From Shigella phage pSf-1, in sequence record KC710998: 51,821 nucleotides of DNA; one strand, 5' to 3'. Below, piece by piece: positions 4,904 to 48,880 of this stretch. The translations under genes and the position numbers were made by a program. Below the pieces are notes generated by a model, which worked only from the letters and a program-made list of their open reading frames with translations, was not told the DNA's origin and did not search any database. How positions within the stretch are numbered: position 1 is the first letter of the stretch; every line of letters begins with the position of its first letter.

Positions 4904-5309
4904 TAAAGGCGATTATCTGGAGTTTTACGAAAGAGATCCGACGGATACGCTAAAAGAGGAATCACACCAGATTGGGGCGTTTCAATGGTTAACTTATGCT
5001 CATCCTGAATTTCTTGCCTGGCATACGAAAAATGAGGGAGAAAAGGGTATCGCTACCGCAATGATGGATCAGCAAGCTGGACTCGTTAAGGGCGTAAGTG
5101 ATTTTATCATCCTGATTGGATTAAAAGGCCGTTACCCATTCGCGGCTATTGAGATGAAACGCGTCAATAAGTCTGGCAAGGGCAAGGCTTCACCAGTCAG
5201 CAAGGAGCAAAAAGCCTTCTTGCGCCGTGTGCGTGAGCTTGGCGGATTCGCTGCCGTAACATACGGATATAAGCAATTCATGATCGCGGTAGAATACATG
5301 ATGAAATAG
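4890..5309 (+). CDS. VRR-NUC domain nuclease (PD-(D/E)xK)
   Basis: KGVSDFIIL...IEMKR motif pattern typical of VRR-NUC; ATG 4890 with AAGGA RBS. Confidence 0.6.
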   Translation: MAITDKGDYLEFYERDPTDTLKEESHQIGAFQWLTYAHPEFLAWHTKNEGEKGIATAMMDQQAGLVKGVSDFIILIGLKGRYPFAAIEMKRVNKSGKGKASPVSKEQKAFLRRVRELGGFAAVTYGYKQFMIAVEYMMK

Positions 5310-8879: not shown

Positions 8880-9296
8880 ATGCGAAAGTTATCACTAATC
8901 GCGATCGCTGTTATTTTGTCTGGATGTTCAAGCGTTACGCCACTGACCGGATTAATCGGTAGTAAGCCGGAAATCACCGCGCAGGCAGGAGCGGAGAACG
9001 TAAAGCAGACCGTAGGCCTGACAGCAAAACAGGACGCAAGCAACAAGCAGGATACAACCATTAAAGATTCGAAAGTTGACACGGTTGATACTTCCAGCAA
9101 AAAGGAGATCAAAACGTCAACCATTCAGGCAAACACCATCAAGGCTGATAAAATCCAGGTTGTGCAGGGTGAGCAAAGGAAGTGGTACGATCCTATAATC
9201 TATTGCGCTGCAATTTTCAGTGGTCTTTTGACTATGCTTTACTTTTCCTACCGCAAAGACAACAAAAAGGAGCTTAACGCCTCCTTTGTTTTATAG
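8880..9296 (+). CDS. unimolecular spanin (lipoprotein with C-terminal TMD)
   Basis: N-terminal lipobox LSGC and C-terminal transmembrane helix; position after endolysin. Confidence 0.6.
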   Translation: MRKLSLIAIAVILSGCSSVTPLTGLIGSKPEITAQAGAENVKQTVGLTAKQDASNKQDTTIKDSKVDTVDTSSKKEIKTSTIQANTIKADKIQVVQGEQRKWYDPIIYCAAIFSGLLTMLYFSYRKDNKKELNASFVL

Positions 9297-9512
9297 TGAA
9301 TCCATCAAATCTTGAAAGCTGTTTCCGCTATAATCATTCTCGACAAGAATGTAAGCACCTTTCTTCTTTATATCCCATAACATTTCATTGTATTCGTAAC
9401 GATTTATTTCAAACGTGCTGCCATCTTCTCTTGTCGCAGTTCCTTTGTCGTTGAAAACATCAAAAGTTACATTGATGATTTTTGTCTCTTTCTTTGTTAC
9501 TTTGATAGCCAT
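9291..9512 (-). CDS. hypothetical protein
   Basis: ATG with AGGA RBS downstream of minus-strand promoter cassette; track ORF 9291..9578. Confidence 0.4.
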   Translation of the reverse strand: MAIKVTKKETKIINVTFDVFNDKGTATREDGSTFEINRYEYNEMLWDIKKKGAYILVENDYSGNSFQDLMDSL

Positions 9513-9543
9513 TTTTAAAATCCTCATATTCGTTTCGATGAAA

Positions 9544-9588
9544 CAAATATACCGATACGAGATCGGGAGTTTTAACAAAAAGTGCTAT
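9544..9588 (-). promoter_or_regulatory. conserved promoter cassette (minus strand)
   Basis: reverse-complement motif GTTTTAACAAAAAGTGCTAT, 17 nt spacer with CCGAT/ATCGG inverted repeat, TATATT, CATCGAAACGAA leader. Confidence 0.55.
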
Positions 9589-9705
9589 TCAATACGCTTT
9601 ACAGTAACCAACAAAACGCCGTCCTCATCACACAAATTATGCTCTGATATATCAAACGCTCGCATGTCAGAATGAATGAGCGTTAACATTGCGTGCATGA
9701 AGTCG

Positions 9706-10113
9706 TCATGTGAGATTGAACTTACGGCGCAGAACTTCAATATTTTGTCTATTAGCATTTGACGTAAACAATTCTTCATCGCTCATTTCTCCGATCCTTA
9801 AAACATCCCTTACCCATTCGTTTTGCATACCTTCCAGACTGTAAAGTTCAAACGAGAAAGGTCGATTTGCAGACCCTTTCTTACACCAGAACTTTCCACC
9901 AACTCCATCAAGATAACCAGCGGTCATCATTCTTGCGCAAAACTCTTTTGAAACGGCGGTTGCAAACATTCTCGGCGTAAATCCTGCGGCCCTTGCGAGC
10001 CGCTCACATTCTCTATGCTGAAATATAAATTTTGCGATATGTTGACGTGTAAACCATTCGAATGACTCACACCAGCGATACAGATCCAAGATAAACAAAA
10101 TGTTACCTCCCAT
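9706..10113 (-). CDS. hypothetical protein
   Basis: ORF track; downstream of HNH gene in same operon. Confidence 0.35.
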   Translation of the reverse strand: MGGNILFILDLYRWCESFEWFTRQHIAKFIFQHRECERLARAAGFTPRMFATAVSKEFCARMMTAGYLDGVGGKFWCKKGSANRPFSFELYSLEGMQNEWVRDVLRIGEMSDEELFTSNANRQNIEVLRRKFNLT

Positions 10114-10615
10114 GATTGCAGTGATATTTTAGTTCGTTTTCTTTTGATCTTCTTGCGCAAGCCGCATCAAATATAGTTTTAAAATATCCAATACAAAATG
10201 TTTTTCCTAAAACTCCTATTTGTGCATAATACAGTCCATCTTTAGTTATTGTAACCCCAGTTAATCCAGTTTTGTTTCTTTTGTTTTTTGATAAGTTTTT
10301 TTGATTATCTTTCTTTCTAACAAGTCTTAGATTTTCTATCCTGTTGTCGTCGCGAATGTGGTTAATGTGATCAATCTCATATCCTTCTAGTATAGCGCCG
10401 TTATGCATTTCCCATATTATCCGATGCGCCAAAAATCTCCTTTTATTTATGTTTAATAATATATAACCAGATTCTAAATCCTTACATCCTGCAATCTTAC
10501 CAGAATATTGAGTGTTACATTTGCTCATTATTCTTTCGCATGAGAAGTGGCTTAATGGCCTGGTGCGCCATATAAGCGCACCATTTGAATATGTAAAATA
10601 ATCATGCCAATTCAT
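10103..10615 (-). CDS. HNH homing endonuclease with AP2-like DNA-binding domain
   Basis: HNH motif EIDHINHIRDDNRIENLRLV...N; AP2-like segment GVTITKDGLYYAQIGVLGKTFCIGYF; GGGGTAA RBS. Confidence 0.65.
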   Translation of the reverse strand: MNWHDYFTYSNGALIWRTRPLSHFSCERIMSKCNTQYSGKIAGCKDLESGYILLNINKRRFLAHRIIWEMHNGAILEGYEIDHINHIRDDNRIENLRLVRKKDNQKNLSKNKRNKTGLTGVTITKDGLYYAQIGVLGKTFCIGYFKTIFDAACARRSKENELKYHCNHGR

Positions 10616-10619
10616 AAAA

Positions 10620-12203
10620 TTACCCCAGCAATGTTGGATTTACGAAAACAACGCCATTAATCACGCAAATATAGTTTCTTTCCTCAAGCATCGGAAGCAG
10701 TTGCGTTTCCATTCGCTTCATTACTCCAGCCTGACCAACAAACGGCTTAACTTTTCGTGCTGCCTCATATATAGCGCGAACATTCAATATCCCCTTATTA
10801 GCCTTGCCGTGTCGAGTAATGATCTCGATTAGTTTACCCATTTCAGCATCATCACCAGCGTAGCCAGAAGCGTTGGCGGCGCTAATGTATGTTTTGCTCA
10901 ACTCGCTAAACATCAGTAGTGCTTCCTGAACGGTTTCAACCTCAATCTCTTTCGACTTTTGAGGGTATCCGCCAGGGTTAAACCAATTGCGGATAGTGTG
11001 CAAAACCGAAGCAATCCTGATCACCTGCTTATCCATTTTTCCAAGCGCACCGCGCAGCATTGTATGCGAATACTTTCCGCCATCGGCAAGGTGCGGTTCC
11101 ATTTCCTGACGAGCCATGTTAAGAACTCGCATTGCTGATTTGCTGATCTTAAGCTGGATGTTTGATTCACTCATGATGTTATGGATCAGCTTAAAATATT
11201 GACTTTTCAGTTCTCCATCAACAGGCTCATAAGTCGAATCACCGTTATCATCAACAAACTTTCGACGACCTAAAAATGATTCCTCACGCACAAGCAAATA
11301 ACGCTCACTTACACCGATACCGCGCGATCCTGCATCCATGATGGCATTGATTGTTTCATCCTGGGCAATTACCGCCATACAGCCAAGAGCTTTAAAACTC
11401 ATATTGTTGTCAGCGTTTGCACGAGCTATAGAAACATGACCGTGATCCCATGCTTTTAATACAAGTTCGCTGTTGGTTTTACGTTCACTATTGGCATATG
11501 TCAGACCTAAAAGGCTGTTAATACTCGTTGCCTCGTCTGAAATTACAGCAAAGTTACCCTGGCGATTATTGATTCTTGCAAGTCCTTCCGGCGTGGTGTC
11601 GGACACAGGGAAAACTATGTCACACATCTTTTCCAGTTTTTCTTCCAGATCTTCTTTCTCCTGGTACAGAGATTCCATATCAGCGCCGGAGCGCTCGCTT
11701 TTCATCTCTTTTGCAAGACCTGCCAACTTTGCCTGAATCTTTTTTCTTTCCTTCTTTCGCTGATCGTTAATTCTTTCCACTTCTGCAACCATTGGAGCAA
11801 GTGCCAAGCTGTTAACGGCAGATTTACCAGTTGATGGAGGCTGGCTTGTAACAACGTACAGAGCGGTTGGTTGATCCGTTCCGTGATACTCAACAGTGAA
11901 GCGTCCAAGCATTGCAGCAGACACGCATCCGATAAAATGCATATATGCCGATGATTCAGGGAACTGAACTGATCGAGCAATGTTGCGCGCCAACTTGCCA
12001 ACAATATCAACATCATTGCCAAGAGAAATTACAGGGTAGCGATCGTTTCCGTTATTAACATCATTAACCTCACCCCAAAAGCTGGACGATTGACGGTATC
12101 CGTTTGCCTGAATGGACACGCGCACCGGAGACAATCCTTGTGCATCAGCTAATTCGATAATTTGTTTTGGTGTTAGTTTGTTGGTTTCAAACGAAAAATT
12201 CAT
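10620..12203 (-). CDS. DUF3987-like P-loop ATPase (putative replicative primase-helicase-associated protein)
   Basis: Walker A-like PPSTGKS, Walker B-like AVISDEAT; start at MNFSFETNK (ATG 12203, AAAGGAG RBS) downstream of promoter cassette. Confidence 0.5.
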   Translation of the reverse strand: MNFSFETNKLTPKQIIELADAQGLSPVRVSIQANGYRQSSSFWGEVNDVNNGNDRYPVISLGNDVDIVGKLARNIARSVQFPESSAYMHFIGCVSAAMLGRFTVEYHGTDQPTALYVVTSQPPSTGKSAVNSLALAPMVAEVERINDQRKKERKKIQAKLAGLAKEMKSERSGADMESLYQEKEDLEEKLEKMCDIVFPVSDTTPEGLARINNRQGNFAVISDEATSINSLLGLTYANSERKTNSELVLKAWDHGHVSIARANADNNMSFKALGCMAVIAQDETINAIMDAGSRGIGVSERYLLVREESFLGRRKFVDDNGDSTYEPVDGELKSQYFKLIHNIMSESNIQLKISKSAMRVLNMARQEMEPHLADGGKYSHTMLRGALGKMDKQVIRIASVLHTIRNWFNPGGYPQKSKEIEVETVQEALLMFSELSKTYISAANASGYAGDDAEMGKLIEIITRHGKANKGILNVRAIYEAARKVKPFVGQAGVMKRMETQLLPMLEERNYICVINGVVFVNPTLLG

Positions 12204-12230
12204 TGGTGATAACTCCTTTTTGATGCGGCA

Positions 12231-12274
12231 ATAATACCGCACCAATGCTACCCGCATTTAACAAAAAATGCTAT
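12231..12274 (-). promoter_or_regulatory. conserved promoter cassette (minus strand, variant ATAGCATTTTTTGTTAAATG)
   Basis: motif + 19 nt spacer + TATTAT upstream of DUF3987 gene. Confidence 0.5.
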
Positions 12275-12487
12275 TTGATCCGCTCTATGCTAACTAAGAT
12301 TTTTTCTGGTTCCTTTGCACTATGGCAATGCGCGGTTACAGAATCAACAAAATCAAAGTAAAGTGATTTGTGATATGAGAATCCAATCAGCCACCCAACC
12401 ATCGTTTTCTTTATTGGCCTGACTATATCGCATGATTGAAGGTTTTTGTTGCTGAATGAGTCACCTTATAGCGATATTCAGCCTTGA

Positions 12488-12874
12488 TCACTTATACATA
12501 GCCTCAAACAAATGACAGCCACCAGCGGAAAATCCAACTTCTTCGCGGTACAGCGTCCAGCGGTCGCCAGCTTCATCAAACACATAACCAGCAACAGCGC
12601 CAAGTGCTCGGCCTTGCTCAATCTGGTAGCGCTTTCCTTCTTTGAAATGCTTTTTACAAGGGATCTTGTGATCTACAAAGGTGCATTTAATTGTTTTTGT
12701 CTTGATATGACGATAGTCAGACTCAACAGCGTTTTGCCACTTGCTACCCTTTGTAATGCTCTTTACCTGGAATTGTTCCAACTCGATCACATCATCGCTA
12801 CCAGCGATTTTTTCGTATACAACTTTATAACGACCGTTCATCAAAACGTTGGTTTTATTGCAGATAACTTTCAT
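12488..12874 (-). CDS. hypothetical protein
   Basis: ORF track; AAGGAG RBS; downstream of promoter cassette. Confidence 0.45.
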   Translation of the reverse strand: MKVICNKTNVLMNGRYKVVYEKIAGSDDVIELEQFQVKSITKGSKWQNAVESDYRHIKTKTIKCTFVDHKIPCKKHFKEGKRYQIEQGRALGAVAGYVFDEAGDRWTLYREEVGFSAGGCHLFEAMYK

Positions 12875-12904
12875 CGTTTATTTCTCCTTTCGTTTCGGTG
12901 AAGT

Positions 12905-12949
12905 GATTATGCCAGGTTTTGCACCTGGCGTTTTAACAAAAAGTGCTAT
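12905..12949 (-). promoter_or_regulatory. conserved promoter cassette (minus strand)
   Basis: 44-nt core identical to the plus-strand cassette at 17701..17744 (includes hairpin GCCAGGTGCAAAACCTGGC). Confidence 0.55.
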
Positions 12950-13655
12950 TTTGCGTTTGCTTCAAAGACGGCGCGAGCAAAACCGCGCGGTGTGAGGGAG
13001 CGGATCATCTTTGTGCGAGATGATTTTCCGCCAGTTTTGGCCCAACCAGGATTATCCTTGTCATCCTCTTTAGGAAGGATTGTTGCGCGCGGAGGAATAA
13101 CAAATCCGTTTCCAGTCCAAAGGCATGTTTTCTTAAAGTACCGATCCCGCGCCGGAATAATATCAGGGAAGTCGGGATGCTTATCATCTTCCGGCAGATA
13201 GCAGCATAATCGCACGGATGGAACGTATAATCAGGCTTACGCCATAACGTTGACAGCTTGCCTACAGGATTTTCGATCATGTAAGGAACGCCGAAATAAT
13301 CAGCGATATGCGCCGCGATTCTGCAAGTGTCGGCGGCCTCATCCTGGAACGCTGGATTCTCAAGGCGTTTTTTGGTCCAATGGCGAGATCCGCTATTTGC
13401 AAGGTCAGTGCACGGCGGAAATGCCATAATGAAATCAGGCTTGCCCCAATTTTCAAGTTTTGCGGTATATTTGAATAGCTCATCAATCCACACATTAACG
13501 TAAAAAATATTATCATGGATTATGCGCACTGATTGGTAGTCGCCATGATCTGCATCATCGTAATTAAAGCAAATGCATTTATATCCAGCATCAGCCCAAT
13601 CTTTAACGGCTTTACCAGATCCATCAAACAAAGAGAATATTAAACCTTTATACAT
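12946..13655 (-). CDS. C5-cytosine DNA methyltransferase-like protein, apparently frameshifted
   Basis: motif I LFDGSG, motif IV FPPCTDLANSG (PC dipeptide), motif VI ENPVG; coding continues in another frame (track ORFs 13005..13655 and 12946..13215). Confidence 0.45.
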
Positions 13656-13888
13656 TTCATCACCTCAAAACGGAAAGCATCTGGGCAGTTCGGATCAAAA
13701 TTGCAACCACAATCATTAACAATCATAGTTGGATCTGCAAATGCAGCGCCGCATTCATGGTCCATATCCATTTCACCCAACGCATCATCAAGCGTCCTGA
13801 TTTTATATGCGACTTCAAGCGCGGCCTCTTTATTCAGTCCGGCATCTTCTGCTTTTTGCAGTCGCTCAAAAAAACCGTCTTGACTCAT
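13640..13888 (-). CDS. hypothetical Cys-rich protein
   Basis: ORF track; Cys-containing CGCNFDPNCPD segment; overlaps start of methyltransferase-like gene. Confidence 0.4.
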   Translation of the reverse strand: MSQDGFFERLQKAEDAGLNKEAALEVAYKIRTLDDALGEMDMDHECGAAFADPTMIVNDCGCNFDPNCPDAFRFEVMKCIKV

Positions 13889-13998
13889 TTAATAAACTCC
13901 TTAACAACAGCAAGAATAATCACAAGCCCAGCAGTAAAAACAAGCAAACCGACAAGGCCAATCATAACACTAAATAAAACATCAAGCGTCTTAATCAT
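13885..13998 (-). CDS. small hydrophobic peptide (about 37 aa)
   Basis: ATG..TGA minus-strand ORF MIKTLDVLFSVMIGLVGLLVFTAGLVIILAVVKEFIK, single predicted TM helix; stop overlaps next start (ATGA). Confidence 0.3.
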   Translation of the reverse strand: MIKTLDVLFSVMIGLVGLLVFTAGLVIILAVVKEFIK

Positions 13999-14010
13999 TT
14001 ATTCACCATT

Positions 14011-14036
14011 GATAAAATGGGAGGCGGAAACCTCCC
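14011..14036 (-). terminator. putative terminator (minus strand)
   Basis: perfect GGGAGG/CCTCCC hairpin followed on minus strand by ATTTTATC. Confidence 0.4.
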
Positions 14037-14045
14037 ATTGGTTAA

Positions 14046-14273
14046 TCATACAGCCTTCCAGCTTTCAATAAACATGCTGTTTTCTTCCAGCAGTTTAATC
14101 AATTCTTCGCGCGTGTATTTGCGGATTTTACTACCTGGATGTGAGCCAACAACAAACACACCTTTACCACTCGTGATTGTTAACTGGTTGATTCCGCAAG
14201 ATTTATCCATCTTAATTGCGACGCGGTGATGTGCATCAACAGTGTTCATGATGTTAGTAACTTTAGCTTTCAT
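14046..14273 (-). CDS. hypothetical protein
   Basis: start at MKAKVTNIM with GAGGAT RBS; track ORF 14046..14336. Confidence 0.45.
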   Translation of the reverse strand: MKAKVTNIMNTVDAHHRVAIKMDKSCGINQLTITSGKGVFVVGSHPGSKIRKYTREELIKLLEENSMFIESWKAV

Positions 14274-14303
14274 TATGCAATCCTCATTATATTTGGTGTG
14301 ATA

Positions 14304-14346
14304 ACTATACCAGGTTTGAGAAATATTGTTTAGCAATTCGTGCTAT
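14304..14346 (-). promoter_or_regulatory. conserved promoter cassette (minus strand, variant ATAGCACGAATTGCTAAAC + TATAGT)
   Basis: same variant upstream half as cassettes at 19381 and 21896. Confidence 0.5.
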
Positions 14347-14447
14347 CAGTTGAAATAGCTATGGCGCTTTGCTCGCTTGCCTTCTCCGCCATAATGATCA
14401 TTTGCAACAGCTACCATCCAGGAATTATGGAATATTATTAGCTTCAT

Positions 14448-14729
14448 CTAATTAATGCCAACAACGTTAAAACTTACAGCTTTTGTTGCGCTAAATACAT
14501 ACGCTTCAACAGCATCACCAAATACACGAATTTTTCCATAGCCGTACTGCGCATTCATATTGCGCCAAACCGTCCTGTTAGAACAGAACGCGTTACCAGT
14601 CTTGATAAGATTATCCATCTCTTTTCTTAGGTCATGATAATCAAGCCAGAATCTATAGGCGCGTTGTTTAATGAGTTTCGCCTTGATTGCTTCGGCTGAG
14701 TTTTTAAAATCGCTGTTTTTGTATGCCAT
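14448..14729 (-). CDS. hypothetical protein
   Basis: ORF track; start overlaps stop of upstream gene (translational coupling). Confidence 0.45.
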   Translation of the reverse strand: MAYKNSDFKNSAEAIKAKLIKQRAYRFWLDYHDLRKEMDNLIKTGNAFCSNRTVWRNMNAQYGYGKIRVFGDAVEAYVFSATKAVSFNVVGIN

Positions 14730-14923
14730 TACACAACCTCCATAATAGTATTGAATCCACGCAGTTTGAAAGAGTTTCCATGTTTAACAACGTTCCATGT
14801 CAGGCCGGAGTGATACGCAACCATATCCTCAAGATCAATTGTGATGATAGCGCCTTTCTTAAAGATTCCTTTCTCGTGAGTGGTGTCACGCTGTACAACT
14901 TTAACATCAACTTGATTTTCCAT
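14729..14923 (-). CDS. hypothetical protein
   Basis: ORF track; GGA RBS in conserved leader. Confidence 0.45.
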   Translation of the reverse strand: MENQVDVKVVQRDTTHEKGIFKKGAIITIDLEDMVAYHSGLTWNVVKHGNSFKLRGFNTIMEVV

Positions 14924-14954
14924 TTTTAAATCCTCGTTCGTTGTCGATGCGCTT

Positions 14955-14998
14955 AATATACCAATCAGAGGCGCATCGGTTTTAACAAAAAGTGCTAT
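14955..14998 (-). promoter_or_regulatory. conserved promoter cassette (minus strand)
   Basis: motif + spacer, TATATT enclosed by 8-bp inverted repeat CGATGCGC/GCGCATCG. Confidence 0.55.
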
Positions 14999-15285
14999 TC
15001 AACAACAGATCCAGTTAAAGAGATAAGTGCTCTTGTGATCTTGTGTCTGCGATACTGACGCGCAACAACCGGAAGATTTTCACCGCTTTGATGACCGAAG
15101 CAGATCGGCAACTCACCCTCAAGAGAGCGGAAGCCGCCAAATTCAAGATCCCGCACTGGATTTGAGCGCCACGCTTCAATAAATCCGCGTTCGTCACGCG
15201 TGATATAGCGGTATATGTTAGGGAGGGGCAATTGTATCCCCTCAAAATCCACGGTATCGGTATAGCTGTAAAACTTAGAACTCAT
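14995..15285 (-). CDS. hypothetical protein
   Basis: start at MSSKFYSY overlapping stop of upstream small gene; track ORF 14995..15402. Confidence 0.4.
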   Translation of the reverse strand: MSSKFYSYTDTVDFEGIQLPLPNIYRYITRDERGFIEAWRSNPVRDLEFGGFRSLEGELPICFGHQSGENLPVVARQYRRHKITRALISLTGSVVE

Positions 15286-15427
15286 AATCAACAACTCCAA
15301 ACTCGTTGACGATTTGCGCCTTATAGAAGCCGCCATTTTTCGCAAGGTTGTAGCATGCCGCCACAGTTTCAAATTCGCGCACTTCCGGCTGGCTGTTTTC
15401 ATGTTCCCAGGTAATCAGAGTAACCAT
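15275..15427 (-). CDS. hypothetical small protein (50 aa)
   Basis: ATG after conserved leader CATCGACAACGAAAGCGAGGA; MVTLITWEHENSQPEVREFETVAACYNLAKNGGFYKAQIVNEFGVVDYEF. Confidence 0.4.
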   Translation of the reverse strand: MVTLITWEHENSQPEVREFETVAACYNLAKNGGFYKAQIVNEFGVVDYEF

Positions 15428-15460
15428 TTTCAAATCCTCGCTTTCGTTGTCGATGTGTGT

Positions 15461-15504
15461 AATGTACAGGAATACGAGGATTGAGTTTTAACAAAAAGTG
15501 CTAT
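15461..15504 (-). promoter_or_regulatory. conserved promoter cassette (minus strand)
   Basis: motif + 18 nt + TACATT + CATCGACAACGA leader. Confidence 0.55.
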
Positions 15505-15771
15505 TTAGTCCAGGAGTTCGATTTCGCGCTCGCCAGTTAACGGATCTTTGATCCAGAATCCGAGCGCCTCACCGTAAATACCGCCATAGAATCCAAGCGC
15601 CGACAGATCCTCACCTTTAACAAATACCAGATCCCCGCTACGGCTTACGTGAGATACGTTAACGATAACCGGAAAGGTGCGATCCTTAAATGCAGGCCGC
15701 ATGGCGTAACACCCGTTATTGAGCAAACGTGCTTTGCGCTTAACTGGAATAGGTGCATTGATTCGCGCCAT
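15505..15771 (-). CDS. hypothetical protein
   Basis: track ORF 15505..15810, start moved to MARINAPIP. Confidence 0.4.
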   Translation of the reverse strand: MARINAPIPVKRKARLLNNGCYAMRPAFKDRTFPVIVNVSHVSRSGDLVFVKGEDLSALGFYGGIYGEALGFWIKDPLTGEREIELLD

Positions 15772-15784
15772 CTTTATTTCTCCT

Positions 15785-16030
15785 TCATTGTTGATCGTGT
15801 TTAACGGCAATCAGAACACCACAGGACTCGTTAATGAATTTTGCCATTCGCTTATCATCACCAGCAGGGATTAGCGCATTACACTCGCGTTTGCTACTGA
15901 ATACCGTCACTTTATGGAATGATGCGAACGGCATCGACGGGAACTCTACTGTTTGCGTCAAGATCCGCAATCCCATCTTTTTGGCCCTTACCTGGGCCTC
16001 AGCGAGTTCAAAATCCACTTCATTAATCAT
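15785..16030 (-). CDS. hypothetical protein
   Basis: ORF track. Confidence 0.4.
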   Translation of the reverse strand: MINEVDFELAEAQVRAKKMGLRILTQTVEFPSMPFASFHKVTVFSSKRECNALIPAGDDKRMAKFINESCGVLIAVKHDQQ

Positions 16031-16299
16031 TTCTTGATCTCCTCGGCAATAAACTTCAGGACTTTGCGCAAAAACACTTCATTATTGATGGTCGCTGGCA
16101 ATTCCTCTTTCACTTCTTGCGGCAGGTAAACGTTGCCATGCCAGGTTAAGCAATCGTAGTTGATACGATAAGAGCAAAGCCACTCGCAATCGTTATCCGC
16201 TTCCCAAATGCAGAGTTGCAGAACATCGCCAAAATTCTCAACAGTCAGGTCCAGACCGTGACGCTTTGCAAAGTTGAAAGTGGTTTTGCTGATGTTCAT
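16027..16299 (-). CDS. hypothetical protein
   Basis: start MNISKTTF after conserved leader; track ORF 16027..16371. Confidence 0.45.
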   Translation of the reverse strand: MNISKTTFNFAKRHGLDLTVENFGDVLQLCIWEADNDCEWLCSYRINYDCLTWHGNVYLPQEVKEELPATINNEVFLRKVLKFIAEEIKK

Positions 16300-16337
16300 T
16301 TGCTTTCTCCTGATGGGTATCTCGTTTCGATGCGTGT

Positions 16338-16381
16338 AATGTACCCGATCAGGATGATTCAGTTTTAACAAAAAGTGCTAT
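16338..16381 (-). promoter_or_regulatory. conserved promoter cassette (minus strand)
   Basis: motif + 18 nt + TACATT + CATCGAAACGAG leader. Confidence 0.55.
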
Positions 16382-16974
16382 TTCTCAACTGGCGATTATT
16401 CCAACTATTCCATTAATCAGGAATAACAAGAATAACTCATTCGCGATCACCTGGATTGTGAGACTTTGAGTTTGGTCAATTTTAATCAAGTGATTAACTT
16501 TTTGTGTGGAGGGGATAGAGAAACGCGGCCCTCTTGCGTCCTTTCCGGCAATCCTGGCGCGCGCAATTGTTATCTTCTGTTATCGCTGTTATGCGTGTTA
16601 TTCCGGCGTGGAATCGCATAACAAAAAATAACAAGAAAAATCCATATAACATACTAAAAAATAAGGATTATTTATTTATATGTATCTATAAATTATTATC
16701 TGTTATGTGTGTTATGTGGGCGTATTGATACCAGATGTATTTTGGTGATTGTATGTGGTTGTGTGTTGGCTTGTATGTATATATGGGGTGGGGCGTATCC
16801 GCGCATTTTTAGATAACACGCAAAAACAACATTGATTTATAAGGAAAAGAACATGAATTTTGTTTCGTTCTTGAAACACAACATTGAAAAACTGCCAATA
16901 ACAATTAAAAACAGTTGACACGCCAGGAATGGTAAATGATAATGCAGCCACTGAATCACGAGGGGGGATAAAGC
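16382..16974. repeat. noncoding AT-rich island with TGTTAT/ATAACA iterons and TG-rich repeats (candidate origin or regulatory hub)
   Basis: four direct TGTTAT copies at 9-10 bp phasing (16568-16601), three ATAACA copies (16618-16651), TGTTATG x2 (16701-16715), GTGATTGT/TGTATGT repeats; no ORF of 60 aa or more. Confidence 0.6.
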
Positions 16975-17292
16975 ATGAGTGAGTCTGTGTTTACAAATGA
17001 GCTTCGCAAGGTTGCAATTGCTCTAGCCACTGGAGTACATGAATCTATCCAGATACCTGAAAGATGGGTAAGGCAGCACCTGGAGGGCAAGAAGTCAGCC
17101 AGCAACGCCGGATCATATCTGCGTCAGATTATGGGGCGCGTTCCAGAAGTGGCGGAGAAGGGGCGAGTTTCAGTATCAAAGAAACCTTACGGCCCTGATA
17201 GCGAATACTTCGGCGAAAATTACTTTGATGTGTCGATTGTTAATGCGCCGAATCGCAGGGTTTACAACAAGGCCGCGCTTGAGAAGCTGTAG
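16975..17292 (+). CDS. hypothetical protein (first gene of plus-strand early cluster)
   Basis: ATG with GAGGGGGGA RBS; a second frame stays open past the stop (possible indel). Confidence 0.45.
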   Translation: MSESVFTNELRKVAIALATGVHESIQIPERWVRQHLEGKKSASNAGSYLRQIMGRVPEVAEKGRVSVSKKPYGPDSEYFGENYFDVSIVNAPNRRVYNKAALEKL

Positions 17293-17445
17293 CGAAAGCA
17301 AAGCGCCAGGTTGCTGAGTCAATGCTTAAAGTCTCACCAAGCCTAGCGAACTACTCGCCAGATGAATATGAAACACTTGCTAAGGCGATCGCAGATTTTC
17401 ACGCGATCATTAAAGAAACATACCTTAACGATGAGGAACAATAAA

Positions 17446-24737: not shown

Positions 24738-24973
24738 GTTCTGTAATTATTGGTTTGGTTGCTTTAATCATTGGTGTTCTAATCGGCTTTGTCGCTGTAT
24801 CTTTCGTTGTGGCTGTTGGTGTTCGCTATAAGTCAAAAAAAGGTGAATTTGCTTTAGCGTTTTGGGATGAAGAGCAGAAAGTTTGGCAGGTTCGCGGTCA
24901 CTATTTATCAATCGGTGGCAGGATTCACAGCACTATGAAAACAAATCCAGAAAAAGTAAAATACAAGTATTGA
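24734..24973 (+). CDS. small membrane protein
   Basis: N-terminal TM helix VIIGLVALIIGVLIGFVAVSFVVAVGV; AAGGA RBS. Confidence 0.45.
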   Translation: MSSVIIGLVALIIGVLIGFVAVSFVVAVGVRYKSKKGEFALAFWDEEQKVWQVRGHYLSIGGRIHSTMKTNPEKVKYKY

Positions 24974-24980
24974 CCAACTA

Positions 24981-25002
24981 CCCGCCAAATGGCGGGTTTT
25001 TT
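24981..25002 (+). terminator. rho-independent terminator followed by TATAAT promoter-like element
   Basis: CCCGCC-aaat-GGCGGG + T6; TATAAT at about 25020. Confidence 0.55.
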
Positions 25003-25053
25003 ATTGCCTGCAATTTGTCTATAATGAGGCTTTGTTATAAAGGAGGGCGCATT

Positions 25054-25574
25054 ATGGCTAAAAACGTTGAGCCAGCAGTAAAGGCTTGCAATTTTAAAAA
25101 ACTATATAATAAGCAATATGGCGATATAGCAAAAATGACAAAGGCGCACAAGTACACGCCGGAACAGGTATTTGATCTGGCTGTTCGTTACTTTACGTGG
25201 GCTGAGGAAAACCATATACAGGCTGCGGAAACGGCATCCTTTCAGGGTGACGTATACGAAAGCAAGATTCACAAGCCGCGCGTGTTCACCTTAAACGGAT
25301 TCCGATTATTCGCTGGCCTTTCTGCCTCCGTACTTGAAAAATGGCGACGCGAGCAGGATTTAGCGATGTTATGGACTTTATCGACGGCGTTGTTTACGAG
25401 CAAAAATTCCAGCTTGCCGCAAACAATATTGTTAACGCCGGATTCATTGGTAAGGAGATCGGCATTGAAAAGCCAGCCACCGTTACCATTGAGAATAACA
25501 CAAGCGCCAGCGTTGACGCTGTAACGGCGGAGGAAGTCAAAGAGGCGGTAATTGACATTCTGGAGAAGATATAA
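25054..25574 (+). CDS. terminase small subunit (apparent frameshift near 25357)
   Basis: N-terminal part ...KPRVFTLNGFRLFAGLSASVLEKWRREQ in one frame, C-terminal part GFSDVMDFIDGVVYEQKFQLAANNIVNAGFIGKEIGIEKP in another (track ORFs 24883..25524 and 25341..25574); AAGGAGGG RBS. Confidence 0.55.
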
Positions 25575-44572: not shown

Positions 44573-45535
44573 ATACATATTTGGAGTGAATGGTATAGGC
44601 ATTGAAATATTTATATTAAATGGAAATTGAGCGCCGCTCTGAGTAGAATAGTTACCTACCCTTGTTCCTGGGGTACTTCTTACGTTGCCACCACTCATGC
44701 ATACGCCCTTGTATCGAATGTTATTATATCCACCCGTAACTCTACATATTGTACCTGTTCTCAGTATTGGGAAAAATCCACCGCACCACTGCCAACCATC
44801 ATTTATCGCCATAGTCCCGCCAAGAACAAAAGGACGTCTAACGCTTGAGAAAACTATCTGACCAGCAGGATTGCTCATAGTGATTCCTGGTCCTGGAGGT
44901 GGTGGAGTGTTATTAAATATTACGAGTTGCACGTATACGCTCGCGCCAACGTCATCAATTCCGTTATAGTTTGCATCTCTGCACCATATCGTGTTGCCGT
45001 CAGATTCCAGAGTTACGTTTGGGTTATCCCACATTCCGAAAGGAACACCCTGGACTGGCAACTGAGCCTGACCGTTAACCTGGATTCCTCCAACAAATGC
45101 CGCGCTCATTAACCTGGCGTTGTTCGGTATTGATGCAAAGTCCGTTGAGTCGCTAACAAGTATCCCCTGATTACCCGCCTGAGCGGGGAGTATTTCGTAG
45201 CAGTTGCCGTAAAACCTCATTCTCCTTCCCCTGCTCCCGTTAAAATTACCTACCGTTATTCGACCAGTTGCGTCATTTACCTTTTGAAAGCTGGTTAAAT
45301 AATAAACTTCCGGTATGTAATCCATATCGTCGATATAAACGGCTTGAGATGGAAGGCAAAAAGCCGTTGATCCTGGACTCATTTGCAAACCAAAATCAAA
45401 TACTGATCCAGATGAATCAACTCCGTCGGCTTGTATAGGTCCACACCATGATGGGGCGCGAAGTCCCGATGTTATCTCCATTGCCGGACGACCGTCATTT
45501 AGGTTTATATATATTCCCTGCCCCATAATTACCAC
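44570..45535 (-). CDS. putative receptor-binding protein (inference from context)
   Basis: 321 aa, Gly/Asn/Ser-rich; co-oriented with and directly downstream of lipoprotein gene; convergent with J. Confidence 0.35.
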   Translation of the reverse strand: MVIMGQGIYINLNDGRPAMEITSGLRAPSWCGPIQADGVDSSGSVFDFGLQMSPGSTAFCLPSQAVYIDDMDYIPEVYYLTSFQKVNDATGRITVGNFNGSRGRRMRFYGNCYEILPAQAGNQGILVSDSTDFASIPNNARLMSAAFVGGIQVNGQAQLPVQGVPFGMWDNPNVTLESDGNTIWCRDANYNGIDDVGASVYVQLVIFNNTPPPPGPGITMSNPAGQIVFSSVRRPFVLGGTMAINDGWQWCGGFFPILRTGTICRVTGGYNNIRYKGVCMSGGNVRSTPGTRVGNYSTQSGAQFPFNINISMPIPFTPNMY

Positions 45536-45759
45536 TCTTTAGTTTTGATTGATACCTTGCCGCTAAAGTTGCCCTGGACGTCATCGGATGACAGACCTTT
45601 GAATCGCATATCTATTTCGCCAGCCGGAATCTTCTGACCATCAACTAATCGCACCATGCAAGATCCGTAAGTGTAAGTAACACAGTCGCCATTTTTAAGA
45701 TTCTGAGCACAACCAGTCAGGGCAACGGCTGCAATCAAAACGGCGATTAACTCTTTCAT
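45529..45759 (-). CDS. small lipoprotein, Llp/Cor-like superinfection-exclusion candidate
   Basis: signal peptide + lipobox LTGC at residues 14-17; 76 aa; AAGGAG RBS. Confidence 0.5.
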   Translation of the reverse strand: MKELIAVLIAAVALTGCAQNLKNGDCVTYTYGSCMVRLVDGQKIPAGEIDMRFKGLSSDDVQGNFSGKVSIKTKEW

Positions 45760-45790
45760 CTTGGTATCTCCTTCGTTGTTGTTGGTTGCA

Positions 45791-45834
45791 ACTATACACG
45801 ATCTTGCGGTTGGCGTTTAGCAAAAAGTGCTATT
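45791..45834 (-). promoter_or_regulatory. conserved promoter cassette (minus strand, variant ATAGCACTTTTTGCTAAAC + TATAGT)
   Basis: motif + 18 nt + TATAGT + CAACAACAACGAAGGAG leader. Confidence 0.55.
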
Positions 45835-46259
45835 CTTGTTCTTTTTGTTATCCGGTGTTCTCAAATCTGCGGAGTCTTAAATTTAGCTCAAAAAGCGAAC
45901 AACAATAGAGCGCAATACATACAGATAATATATATACATACATATAAATCAATAAGTTAGTAGTATATATATTCATGTTTGTTCTTTATTGTTATCTATG
46001 TTTTGTGTGATTTTGTGTGTCTGGTGATTTTTCTGTGATTGTGCATGTGTCATTGGTTATGTGTGTCTATATATCTATATCCGGCGCAAATTGAGGAACA
46101 AGAGAACAAAAGATAACAAGGATATTTATCAATCACTTACATGTAAGTTTTGTTATCTAAGTTGGCTATAACGTTGTTAGAACAGAAAAAACAAAATAAC
46201 TATTGACTAAACGCATCAAATAGCTACAATGCAGACATACCAACCAATGAGGGCAAATC
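45835..46259. repeat. noncoding AT-rich island with TGTTATC/GATAACA iterons, TATA-repeats and GTGATT/GTGTG repeats
   Basis: copies of TGTTATC at about 45845, 45990, 46151; GATAACA at 46113; TATATATACATACATATAAAT tract; no ORF of 60 aa or more. Confidence 0.6.
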
Positions 46260-47321
46260 ATGAATAAGTTTATGGCGTACACCAGCGAAGAAATGAGCAA
46301 TGAGCTTTATCACGATCCAGAAGCGTGGACGGCTGATTATGTTAGTGGATCAAGCCTTGCAGAGATTTACAGCACATGCCCGGCGGCGTGGAAGTTCAAG
46401 CCGCGCGACGACAAGAGCAAGGCGCTAGTTTTCGGTACGCAGTCGCATACCAACTTTGAAAGCAAGGAGCTTTTCGAAAAAACATATCGCCGTGCGCCAG
46501 CGCCAGAAGACTTTAAGGATCTGATAACCAGCCAAACGGCGCTTGCTGCAAAGCTAAAATCATTTGGCCTGAAAGGTACAACAGGAAAGACTTACCCTGA
46601 ACTTATAAAAATGTTGGTTGACTGCGGAGAAGACCTTAACGTCATGTGGTTAATCGACATGATCGCAGAAAGTCAGGCCAGGGCTGACGGCGTGCAGCTA
46701 ATCGAATCTAAAGATTACGATGCGTGCGTGGCAATGCGCCAGGTTCTGGAATCAATACCTGAACATAACGCATGTATGAATAGCAAGACAGCACAACGTG
46801 AATTATCGTTGTTCGGTGAAATCAACGGCGTAAAAGTCAAAGTGCGATGCGATCACGTTGACGTAACGAAGAACGTAACAGCAACTTTGATTGATGGTTA
46901 CGATGAAAAAGGACAGCCGATTTGCCGCGATATTATTTATCCAGAGGCGATTGTGATCACTGACTACAAAACAACGATGAGCGCTAATCCGGCTGAGTTT
47001 ATGCGCCTGGCCTACAATCACGGCTATTATCTGAAAATGGCGTTGCAATGTGATTTATTCAGGAAAGCGTATCCAGAAGAAAAGCGACCTATAGTTGTGC
47101 GCCTGTTAGCGCAAGAGAAGAAAGAGCCTTACTTGCCGTTAGCTTTCCGCATGAACAGCGAGCAATTGAAGATCGGGCGCATTCAGTACATGAGCGTAAT
47201 TAACCAGTTTGCCATGTGCCAGCAACATGACGTTTGGCCTTCGTATTCAAACGGTGAGCCGGAGGTTTGCCTTGATACTCCTGATTGGGTGCGACGCCAG
47301 TTTAAGCAATATCTTATTTAA
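46260..47321 (+). CDS. PD-(D/E)xK family exonuclease (recombination exonuclease candidate)
   Basis: ITDYKTT motif (RecB/Cas4-like nuclease motif); upstream of Erf and SSB. Confidence 0.5.
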   Translation: MNKFMAYTSEEMSNELYHDPEAWTADYVSGSSLAEIYSTCPAAWKFKPRDDKSKALVFGTQSHTNFESKELFEKTYRRAPAPEDFKDLITSQTALAAKLKSFGLKGTTGKTYPELIKMLVDCGEDLNVMWLIDMIAESQARADGVQLIESKDYDACVAMRQVLESIPEHNACMNSKTAQRELSLFGEINGVKVKVRCDHVDVTKNVTATLIDGYDEKGQPICRDIIYPEAIVITDYKTTMSANPAEFMRLAYNHGYYLKMALQCDLFRKAYPEEKRPIVVRLLAQEKKEPYLPLAFRMNSEQLKIGRIQYMSVINQFAMCQQHDVWPSYSNGEPEVCLDTPDWVRRQFKQYLI

Positions 47322-47402
47322 ACAGCACAAATAGCTAAACAAATGAAAAATGCGGTGTTATAATTCACCGCATAAGTTAACAGCAAGAGTAAGGAAATAA
47401 AC

Positions 47403-47681
47403 ATGGAAAACAAACAAGTGTCAGAGGTGGCAGTTCATATCAATAATTTTGCAACTGGCATGGCTATGTTGCTTCGTGATTTTGTAGCGCCGCTTGATCC
47501 AACGGCAGGCGCAGAAGAGATGGAGTACATCAGAAAAGTAATTGATGCAGTCGATAACGTCGTACTTGTTGCAACAATGAGCGAAGACAACGAGGAAGCA
47601 ATCAAGGCGGTAAAAGAAAGTTCTGATCGCATGATGGAAAATCTGATTAAATTACACACCAAAGAAGAAACAAAACATTAA
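47403..47681 (+). CDS. hypothetical protein
   Basis: ORF track; AAGGAAATAAAC RBS. Confidence 0.4.
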   Translation: MENKQVSEVAVHINNFATGMAMLLRDFVAPLDPTAGAEEMEYIRKVIDAVDNVVLVATMSEDNEEAIKAVKESSDRMMENLIKLHTKEETKH

Positions 47682-47726
47682 CAGCAATAAGGCGGCTAAA
47701 GCCGCCATTAATTACGGGAATTAATC

Positions 47727-48383
47727 ATGAAACTATCAGAGCAATTCGACAAGGTTTTACCAGCACTGCATAAGGCGCGCAGTTTGTTTGTAAAGGTTAA
47801 GAAGGATAAGCAAAATACACACTTAAAAAACCGTTACGCGACACTTGATTCCGTTCTTGATGCAATCACTCCAGCACTCAACGATAACGAGCTAATGTTG
47901 ATGCAGGATATGATTGAAAGCGAACAACCTAACAGAATCAAGGTTGAGACAACAGTTCTTCATGTTTCCGGTCAGTGGGTTAAATTCTATGCTGAATTAC
48001 CAATAGTTAAAAACGATCCTCAAGGTGTCGGATCTGCATTCACATACGCGCGTCGTTATGCAGCCGCCGCAGCATTTGGCTTAAGCCAGGCAGACGATGA
48101 CGCACAGATTGCCGTTAAATCTGCAAACGACTGGAAGCGTGACATTGAGAAATGCGAAAGCGTAAACGAATTGCAAGAAGTGCTTAAATCAGCATGGAAG
48201 GCAAGCGATCCGGCAAGCAAGCAGGTAATTAAAGAGCATTACGAAAAACGCAAGGCAGAGCTTGAGATCGGAAAAGCACGAGGATTTAATCCAGCGCAAC
48301 CAAAGCAAAATCTTGCATCACCAGAAGTTGACACAAAAAACGACGAGCAAGTAAAATCACAAAGTATCACTGATTTTGAATAA
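47727..48383 (+). CDS. erf: Erf-like single-strand annealing protein
   Basis: size and composition; context exonuclease-Erf-SSB. Confidence 0.5.
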
Positions 48384-48390
48384 TTGACAT

Positions 48391-48412
48391 GGGGCGCTTG
48401 CGCCCCTTTCTT
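48391..48412 (+). terminator. putative terminator
   Basis: GGGGCG-cttg-CGCCCC followed by TTTCTT. Confidence 0.45.
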
Positions 48413-48427
48413 ACAGGAGTATAAAAC

Positions 48428-48880
48428 ATGCATATTATTACTGGTGAGATCCGAAAAGAGCCGCGAGTAAAGCAAATGCCTAACGGCAGCACACTTTATG
48501 TGGTTGAACTTTCAGAGCGATACAAAGATAAAGATGGAAACTGGCAATATACAAACTACAGTTTCTTTTTTAATGCTAAAACAGAAGGACTTAAGGGTTG
48601 GTATGATGAGGCGTTCCAGGTTGGCAAGGTTATTTCTGTATCTTGCGACACGCTGCGCATTGAAACGCGTGAATATAACGGAAAGATGTATTCAAGTTTA
48701 ATGCCAGGAGGATTTGCAAATCTTATCTTCAGTCAGCGCGGGGAAAGTCAGCAACAATATCAGCAGCGAACGCAAGGGGGATGGGGCCAACCACAACAAC
48801 AGAATCAACCGCAACAACCGCAACAGCCAAGACAAAGCAATCAACCTCCTATGGACTTTGACGACGACATTCCTTTCTGA
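48428..48880 (+). CDS. ssb: single-stranded DNA-binding protein
   Basis: C-terminal acidic tail DFDDDIPF identical to canonical SSB tip; Gln/Pro/Gly-rich linker. Confidence 0.8.
   Translation: MHIITGEIRKEPRVKQMPNGSTLYVVELSERYKDKDGNWQYTNYSFFFNAKTEGLKGWYDEAFQVGKVISVSCDTLRIETREYNGKMYSSLMPGGFANLIFSQRGESQQQYQQRTQGGWGQPQQQNQPQQPQQPRQSNQPPMDFDDDIPF

Follow-up and report, generated by a model that had tools for sequence, protein, structure and literature searches.

What is the role of the long noncoding gap that separates the two divergent early gene clusters of Shigella phage pSf-1? The window, by which we mean the whole stretch of 51,821 bp that was analysed (KC710998), behaves as a complete T1-like, Hanrivervirus-like genome of the Drexlerviridae. 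Its gap covers positions 16300-16974 (675 bp), between the ATG of the first leftward gene at 16299 and the first rightward gene, which starts at 16975. An original prediction, made from the letters alone, had described about 590 bp without a credible open reading frame (ORF), filled with phased TGTTAT repeats, and had seen in them either a replication origin or a multi-site binding array for a regulatory protein. It was right that no credible gene lies there, but it drew the gap too short. The sequence features described below indicate that the gap is a composite early control region, the core of which (16568-16913) is one of two paralogous modules of the genome. We name the gap island 1 and its counterpart island 2. 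The most likely reading of the island, an array of protein-binding sites arranged around a place where DNA melts, makes it the best candidate for the unlocated replication origin of the T1 family. No origin was found in the related phage SU57 (PMC7718038), and the authors of the TLS genome reported no iterons anywhere in that phage (PMC11447400).

The repeats are the most conspicuous feature of the region. TGTTAT, counted together with its complement ATAACA, is the most enriched hexamer of the island: there are 12 copies in 16300-16974, while the rest of the genome leads one to expect 0.66. When the genome is cut into 76 non-overlapping bins of 675 bp, none beyond that of the island contains more than three copies. 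The genome as a whole has 62 of them, more than any of 100 dinucleotide-preserving shuffles of its entire sequence (33 ± 6). The original prediction had offered background frequency in shuffled sequence as a way to refute it, and the repeats are in clear excess. All the repeat elements that it had listed lie where it had put them, its further ATAACA copies being at 16423, 16813 and 16898, and its TG-rich block and GC-rich segment are also present, at about 16737-16773 and at 16521-16567 respectively.

Read from left to right, the module opens with four direct TGTTAT sites on the plus strand (16568-16601, starts at 16568, 16578, 16587 and 16596, hence spacings of 10, 9 and 9 bp). A CCGGCG box (16603-16608) then separates the direct from the inverted sites; it recurs at this position, in the two islands as among relatives, in the form CCGGCG, tccgca or CGGCGTAAAT. 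Three inverted ATAACA sites follow (16618-16651, minus strand, starts at 16618, 16628 and 16646, spaced by 10 and 18 bp), the third of which overlaps TATAAC (16645-16650), a degenerate −10-like box. Next comes an AT-rich core (16652-16700, 88% A+T), a candidate DNA-unwinding element, then a right array of two direct TGTTAT sites on the plus strand (16701-16715, starts at 16701 and 16710, 9 bp apart). Beyond it lies a strand-asymmetric block, G+T-rich on the plus strand (16716-16804), in which 16736-16796 is 85% G+T with only two C residues, and which ends with GGGGTGGGG (16785-16793) and CCGCGC (16799-16804). Distal inverted sites on the minus strand (16813-16913) complete the series: ATAACA at 16813, AAAACA/ACAACA at 16823-16831, nnAACA at 16848, 16873 and 16878, and finally ATAACA at 16898 with AAAACA at 16908, which abut the −35 hexamer of a sigma-70 promoter. 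This rightward early promoter (16915-16943, plus strand) reads TTGACA-17-GATAAT. With 11 of the 12 consensus positions matched, it is one of only three sites of this quality in the genome, and it drives the first rightward gene.

The AT-rich tract noted beside the iterons is real, and its stability sets it apart. In a scan of nearest-neighbour energy, no window of 30, 80 or 100 bp in the genome is less stable than those of 16652-16700, which rank equal with 45919-45976, the core of island 2. The island thus presents what is seen in iteron origins, phased repeats far above chance and, next to them, an easily melted AT-rich element. The asymmetric block is almost as singular: in G+T content it belongs to the top 0.13% of all 80-nt windows, the maximum of the genome being the equivalent block of island 2. 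We also remark that GGTGG, GGTGA or TGGTG, the core sequence of Chi (GCTGGTGG), recur time and again in the G+T blocks (16733-16796, 46005-46080 and those of relatives).

Island 2, which the original prediction did not mention, occupies 45760-46259, between a Cor-like lipoprotein gene (45530-45759, minus strand) and an operon on the plus strand (46260-48880) coding for an exonuclease VIII-like protein, a small protein, an Erf-like annealing protein and a single-stranded DNA-binding protein (SSB), as judged from matches to PHROG families. Its module (45837-46230, plus strand) reads in the following order: left direct sites TGTTCT/TGTTAT/TGTTCT (45837-45861, plus), inverted sites CGAACA/ACAACA, that is GAACAACA (45896-45904, minus), the AT core found by the stability scan (45919-45976), right direct sites TGTTTG/TGTTCT/TGTTAT/TGTTTT (45976-46004, plus), the G+T block, a CCGGCG box after it (46081-46086), inverted sites GGAACA/AGAACA/ATAACA (46095-46118, minus), a last inverted pair AGAACA/AAAACA (46179-46193, minus) that abuts a −35 hexamer, and a promoter of sigma-70 type, TTGACT-16-TACAAT (46203-46230, plus), which drives the operon. 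The two islands of pSf-1 and the two islands of TLS form a collinear alignment, with a mean column identity of 58%, that extends to the AATGCAG start region of the promoters. A scan of the genome finds such arrays at two places only, 16568-16913 and 45837-46230, each module being about 400 bp long. A run of TGTT at 763-784 was considered as a possible third island and set aside, as the stretch looks like ordinary coding sequence.

The layout can be followed across the family. We collected equivalent regions from 43 IMG/VR loci via the leftward gene and from 22 via the rightward gene, to which we added the GenBank records of KarlJaspers, NorthRox, T1 and TLS. The DNA of the gap is a mosaic: many Hanriverviruses share 16300-16593 and then diverge completely, while others are 67% identical or cannot be aligned. 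The same order recurs nonetheless in relatives: a 21-nt repeat on the minus strand, a lineage-specific repeat tract, a G-box, two to four direct TGTTnn sites at 9-10 bp, a box of the CCGGCG/tccgca type, two or three inverted nnAACA sites at about 10 bp, a strongly conserved AT core, two or three further direct TGTTnn sites, a G+T block that ends in a G-run and a CCGCG-type box, more inverted sites, and a sigma-70 promoter. To make this quantitative, motif counts per 20 nt were taken over non-redundant sequences anchored on the AT core (20 for island 1, 24 for island 2), with a background of about 0.13 (0.125). In the relatives of island 1, TGTT culminates at 1.0 between −120 and −60 from the core (range 0.5-1.0), AACA at 0.85 between −60 and −20 (range 0.65-0.85), TGTT again at 1.1 between +20 and +80, and AACA at 0.75 between +140 and +260; over +120 to +260 the AACA counts run from 0.35 to 0.87. 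The pattern of orientations is therefore kept, at four to eight times background, in the 20 relatives of island 1 and in the 24 of island 2, TLS and T1 among the latter, in sequences that are otherwise mostly unalignable. The AT core is better conserved than its flanks, and this goes beyond mere AT-richness.

What changes is the pair of bases after TGTT, which varies between lineages and is homogenised within an island: pSf-1 has 12 TGTTAT, L060 has seven TAAACA, L063-L066 have six GAAACA, and T1 uses sites of the nTTAC type (ATTACG, GTTACA, TGTAACA) together with TTAACA. Because the variants are uniform within islands and differ between lineages, a specificity encoded by the phage, rather than by its host, seems indicated. 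Of the two functions that the original prediction put forward, the multi-site binding array is strongly supported by this conservation of sites in the 20 and 24 relatives; that the AT core melts and that replication starts at the modules is what we infer beyond it.

Which protein, then, might occupy the sites? The gene that always comes first after island 1 codes for a protein with a DUF7174 domain, and a weak homologue holds that position in T1. The family comprises 115 cluster representatives, all with the DUF7174 domain; where these come from long contigs or have a named source, they belong to T1-like phages of about 50 kb. Its predicted structure has a winged-helix-like N-terminal domain (H-E-H-H-E-E) followed by a helical-hairpin C-terminus, with an invariant Tyr and an invariant Arg in the putative recognition helix. 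No relative of known function came out of Foldseek against the Protein Data Bank (PDB), of BFVD, of profile (HMM) comparison with the PDB, or of Pfam at E ≤ 1. DUF7174 always travels with the arrays, an association confounded by physical linkage. The DUF7174 product appears the better candidate for a protein that would bind the TGTTnn sites, better than the DUF3987 protein that the original prediction had listed among its possible binders. The latter (10620-12257, minus strand) is identified by Pfam and PHROG matches as an MCM-related helicase of superfamily 6 (SF6), and had no sequence relatives in the PDB. DUF3987 proteins have been described as replicative-type, MCM-related helicases with a C-terminal winged helix (PMC4889955, PMC11724360). 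It is not what determines the site variant, because it is 100% identical in pSf-1 and L007, and again in L008 and L012, pairs in which the islands differ. It is probably the replicative helicase, the one that would need loading at an origin: pSf-1 encodes this helicase and a primase, and no recognised initiator.

The interpretation that we retain, tentatively and at somewhat less than an even chance, is that pSf-1 carries twin modules, each made of iterons and a melting site and bound by a phage protein, which act as replication origins and at the same time regulate the early promoters. The process might unfold as follows. A phage-encoded protein – most likely that of DUF7174, whose gene would be the first to be expressed from the neighbouring sigma-70 promoter – would coat the TGTTnn sites. 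Its oligomerisation on the convergent groups of sites on either side of the AT core would distort the core and melt it. The DUF3987 helicase and the primase would then be recruited and host polymerase III would copy the DNA, the two modules working as twin origins, while the block that is G+T-rich on one strand and C+A-rich on the other might be a zone for loading or priming. Through the sites that abut the −35 hexamers, the same protein would regulate both early operons by feedback. Sites do abut the −35 hexamer of both early promoters, in a layout akin to that of autoregulated initiator genes. A more specific form of the idea has two paralogous and almost diametrically placed origin modules, DUF7174 as a family-specific initiator that autoregulates early transcription, and one of the modules fused to the packaging site (pac). 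We regard this conjunction as doubtful; were it true, the start of replication, the start of early transcription and the start of packaging would share a single region of 675 bp.

Several observations weigh against the origin interpretation. The island has no DnaA box (TTWTNCACA). Cumulative GC skew, which had been suggested as a check, is of no help: its minimum at about 16 kb is uninformative because the skew changes sign, here as at every other switch, where gene orientation changes. The DUF7174 gene (16975-17444, plus strand) is itself frame-shifted in pSf-1, near 17288, with loss of the C-terminal helices, whereas that of relatives is intact and codes for 156 residues. What is left is a product of 105 residues (16975-17292), a form found among the records of pSf-1, the source phage of the window, and a 40-residue ORF (17322-17444) that encodes the missing C-terminal helix and still matches the family profile; the gene is split naturally, or else its sequence contains an error. 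An attempt to read a residue code in the recognition helix, where Q or T after the invariant Arg would go with the site variant, proved inconsistent, since L055-L058 have T and yet ATAACA sites. L008 and L012 have different types of DUF7174 and yet share the same island 2. Finally, each module immediately precedes an early promoter, with an orientation that is kept from one to the other, and a purely transcriptional role would account for this too.

That role is the main rival of the origin interpretation, though we think it rather unlikely. The TGTTnn sites would be operators or activator sites of an early phage regulator, DUF7174 or another, that switches both sigma-70 operons on or off, along with the leftward promoters next to them. 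The AT core and the G+T block would then contribute to promoter architecture, as sources of curvature, as upstream elements or as weak internal promoters, with replication starting elsewhere. Winged-helix response regulators such as PhoB, PhoP, OmpR and ArcA bind direct repeats phased at 10-11 bp, a layout like that of our sites. Each module is fused to a sigma-70 promoter, the two promoters being homologous, and has the leftward 21-nt repeat at its flank; pairs of sites abut the −35 hexamers, and the sites nearest to each outward-pointing promoter have the same orientation with respect to it. A TATAAT-like box, moreover, comes 9-14 nt after the inverted pair in about half of the relatives (12 of 20 for island 1, 9 of 24 for island 2), as it does at activator-dependent promoters. 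Yet that internal −10 box is not intact in pSf-1, which has TATAAC, and it is absent from roughly half of the relatives. Control of a promoter would not normally need at least 12 sites over 350 bp, a conserved hyper-unstable core and a conserved asymmetric block. The core is also conserved in sequence beyond its AT-richness. The missing box bears on another proposal too. An origin of the T4 oriF/oriG type, with an internal promoter and an R-loop, is not favoured for pSf-1 because the internal TATAAT is lacking here.

A host protein recruited to the sites, of the PhoP, ArcA or OmpR type, with half-sites such as TGTTTA, TGTTA or those resembling GTTACA, or else nothing beyond the intrinsic curvature of the DNA, is improbable. 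The half-site of PhoP is TGTTTA, some lineages use exactly TGTTTA/TAAACA, and the phasing is near one helical turn. It is, however, 9-10 bp, against 11 bp for the boxes of PhoP and ArcA, and phages isolated on the same host, E. coli K-12, use different variants, each homogenised in its island (TGTTAT, TGTTTC, TGTTCT, the nTTAC of T1). Under a fixed host factor, such differences would not be selected. A role in recombination-dependent replication, the modules being entry points for replication or concatemers with G+T-rich DNA preferred by RecA or Erf beside an easily opened core, is more improbable still. Formation of T1 concatemers depends on the recombination genes of T1, island 2 heads the exonuclease/Erf/SSB operon, and GGTGG or GGTGA recur in the G+T blocks; these blocks contain no full Chi octamer, however, the phased and oriented TGTTnn sites would be left without explanation, and the idea is entirely speculative.

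There is one more function to be considered, packaging, which is likely to belong to this gap and yet not to the arrays. The pac of T1-like phages was placed in this untranslated region in the SU57 paper (PMC7718038). The T1 record begins inside the gap and annotates a terminal repeat of 2.8 kb from its position 1. The TLS record begins at AGATTT, which is the pac that its authors mapped with restriction enzymes (PMC11447400). An older proposal, as far as it is cited in PMC8421802, tied the ATATA repeats of the AT-rich tract of T1 to pac. In phage P1, four and three hexamers flank the zone where pac is cleaved, and the arrangement of four direct and three inverted hexamers in island 1 resembles it. 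One might then suppose that the arrays with their AT core are pac itself, the small terminase (TerS) binding the clusters of hexamers and cutting between them. We find this quite improbable, about as much so as recruitment of a host protein. Headful packaging of the T1 type starts at a single site, while the module formed by the arrays and the core occurs twice per genome.

The assigned ends, furthermore, lie elsewhere. To the left of the arrays, and in island 1 only, is a segment that we call part A (16384-16507). It contains TTATTCC/CTATTCC (16396-16411), the facing GGAATAA/GAATAAC (16420-16436) and GGATTGTGAG (16453-16462), and is followed by a G-box, GGAGGGGATAGAG (16508-16520), which has equivalents in T1, L012, L015, L016 and L046, and by the GC-rich spacer (16521-16567). 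The whole of 16384-16567 is absent from island 2, that is, about 125-185 bp made of part A, G-box and spacer. The repeats of part A are specific to lineages: GGAATAA-type in pSf-1, GTAATCA in Warwickvirus-like phages, runs of GATT(T/G) in TLS, L018 and L065. The observation also takes in 1-60 of L061 and 1-70 of L004. The AGATTT start of the TLS record falls within such a run, some 200 nt leftward of the AT core. For T1 as for TLS, the start of the record and the assigned pac correspond to 16384-16520 of pSf-1, 50-200 bp to the left of the TGTTAT arrays. In L007 the small terminase is 96% identical to that of pSf-1 and part A 95%, while the arrays and the core are replaced by sequence that cannot be aligned. 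Because there are two array modules and a single part A, we assign pac to the latter: the left part of island 1 (16384-16520) is probably the packaging site, an element separate from the arrays. Two further pieces of evidence were dropped. The start of the haarsle record, at the G-box, was rejected as a physical terminus, the source study having made no determination of ends. The divergence of the small terminase of 2019SD1, taken at one stage as an argument against pac, was withdrawn, and the identity of that protein is left unused because the genome is based on nanopore data, whose indels make it unreliable; the divergence is probably an artefact.

Two minor observations belong with this segment and with the terminase. 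There is one match to the consensus of integration host factor (IHF), at 16484. The small-terminase ORF (24883-25524) aligns to L006 and L007 as two pieces in different frames, joined at residue 157 (near 25350), and its C-terminal 56 residues resemble out-of-frame sequence; there may be a frame error at this point. The TTG listed as the start of the ORF probably lies upstream of the true one; there is a Met near residue 58.

Returning to the twin origin modules, their proposed logic is that of phage lambda, of iteron plasmids and, especially, of phage P4. The small genome of P4 needs two separate cis regions, ori and crr, which carry the same short repeats, as the two collinear islands do in pSf-1. 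In the annotated P4 record the sites, GGTGAACA/TGTTCACC, are phased at 10-11 bp, in both orientations, next to AT-rich DNA; they have the same TGTT/AACA core, and TGTTCAC(C) occurs literally in some T1-like relatives. The type I octamer TGTTCACC is absent from the islands of pSf-1, however, which have TGTTAT, with TGTTCT in island 2. The conserved core is here of 4-6 bp only, and the modules differ further in having a G+T-rich block and in being fused to an early promoter. The type I iterons of P4 are bound by its alpha primase-helicase, whereas the helicase of pSf-1 is the MCM-like DUF3987 protein, and the C-terminal origin-binding region of alpha showed no homology to DUF7174 (hhalign probability 0.15%) or to the C-terminus of DUF3987 (BLASTP E = 0.64).

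Iteron plasmids (pSC101, F with RepE, R6K, RK2) likewise place the sites of the initiator beside an AT-rich unwinding element, with the initiator gene adjacent and partial sites that overlap or abut its promoter. Their iterons, however, are 17-22 bp long and spaced by about 22 bp, and DnaA boxes are usual. Their Rep proteins have no detectable homology to DUF7174, which differs from them in having a single small winged-helix-like domain with a helical hairpin. At archaeal origins, inverted ORB elements flank an AT-rich unwinding element and it is MCM that is loaded, to which the DUF3987 helicase is related (SF6; PMC4889955); the comparison is by analogy, pSf-1 having no Orc1/Cdc6 homologue and much shorter sites. 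Membership of the modules in the P4, plasmid-Rep or archaeal families is thus not supported. As for the pac of P1 and of T1/TLS, the likeness lies in the four plus three hexamers around a central zone and in the T1/TLS ends that fall in this gap, the difference in the double occurrence of the arrays and in the assignment of the ends to the left part, specific to island 1.

T1 counts among the seven classical T phages, and the Drexlerviridae are abundant, notorious as laboratory contaminants, and used in phage collections and as candidates for therapy. We found no literature that mentions DUF7174 or defines an origin in the T1 family, the genome papers of T1 and Rtp, which may have noted some of this, lying outside the coverage of our search. 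The analysis yields coordinates for two candidate origins, names DUF7174 as a candidate binder and offers a means of telling pac apart from the remainder of the island. Should they be confirmed, the twin modules would give DUF7174 a function and explain why mosaic exchange in the family has its main breakpoint in this gap, and they would provide handles for engineering (minimal replicons, packaging signals, control of early promoters). If purely regulatory, they would still make an unusually elaborate and conserved device for the control of early promoters.

The surroundings of the island can be described briefly. Over the 1.4 kb around it, nucleotide matches in GenBank to Drexlerviridae phages reach 91-94% identity, the best annotated relative being Shigella phage ESh4, classified in Tempevirinae, Hanrivervirus. 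The matches also include 20 records labelled 'Campylobacter phage' (MG065640 and others) that are 92-93% identical over the island to this coliphage-type genome, so that their attribution to a Campylobacter host looks doubtful. The leftward early cluster (9291-16299) contains the DUF3987 helicase gene, a methyltransferase gene and, directly downstream of the helicase gene, an HNH endonuclease gene (HNH_3, 10103-10615, minus strand), missing from most relatives and probably a mobile insertion of the homing type. The rightward block, from 16975, leads from small early genes to terminase, head and tail; other blocks hold the exonuclease/Erf/SSB genes, the primase, an SF2 helicase, Dam and the lysis genes. 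None of the five small ORFs within the gap, nor the one annotated in KarlJaspers, matches a PHROG family, and their annotation in relatives is inconsistent. A scan of the island with the Rfam covariance models gave nothing but CrcZ at chance level (12 bits, for a threshold of 95 bits). The hypothesis that satellites or plasmids have pirated the island was rejected, as a search of 5,426 complete E. coli genomes and 72,556 plasmids gave no match to it.

The left border of the island, finally, has features of its own. The original prediction had left out island 2, the sigma-70 promoter and the fact that T1 and TLS have their pac end placed towards the left of this gap; it had also left out a 19-nt motif, ATAGCACTTTTTGTTAAAA (16363-16381, minus strand), which is the core of a 21-nt direct repeat found throughout the family. 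In TLS, intergenic copies of this repeat, with consensus aaATAGCACnnnTTGnTAAAA, are oriented with transcription about 76 nt before start codons, and roles as promoter, enhancer or stoperator have been suggested for them (PMC11447400). The copy at 16363-16381 is an exact match to that consensus, some 65-80 nt upstream of the ATG at 16299, and heads the leftward cluster; another (45815-45833, minus strand) stands at the left edge of island 2 and heads the Cor-like lipoprotein gene. The form ATAGCACnnnTTGnTAAAA has 20 copies in pSf-1, where 0.26 would be expected, all oriented with transcription (for example at 5306, 6326, 9570, 12931, 14980, 15486, 16363, 17701, 18164, 23238 and 35154). The repeat, distinct from the TGTTAT sites and forming just the left border of each island, is read as a promoter-like element, to which we assign no mechanism.

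Between it and the start codon of the first leftward gene (16027-16299, minus strand, 90 residues, phrog_6147, function unknown, PHROG match 8.5e-44), which bounds the island on the left, is a leader hairpin, CCUGAUCGGGUA...UACCCAUCAGG (16303-16354, minus strand), whose 3′ arm overlaps the Shine-Dalgarno sequence. The RNA folds at −16.6 kcal/mol (z = −3.5 with respect to shuffles). Because the first 84 nt are the sole part of the island conserved across many Drexlerviridae, the hairpin suggests a control of translation or of stability for that gene. In L006, a close relative read here in reverse complement, an additional small leftward gene that brings a 21-nt repeat of its own separates the island from the gene that usually comes first, phrog_6147, of which it lies some 90-400 nt upstream. 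Genes are therefore gained by insertion of whole cassettes made of a repeat and its gene.

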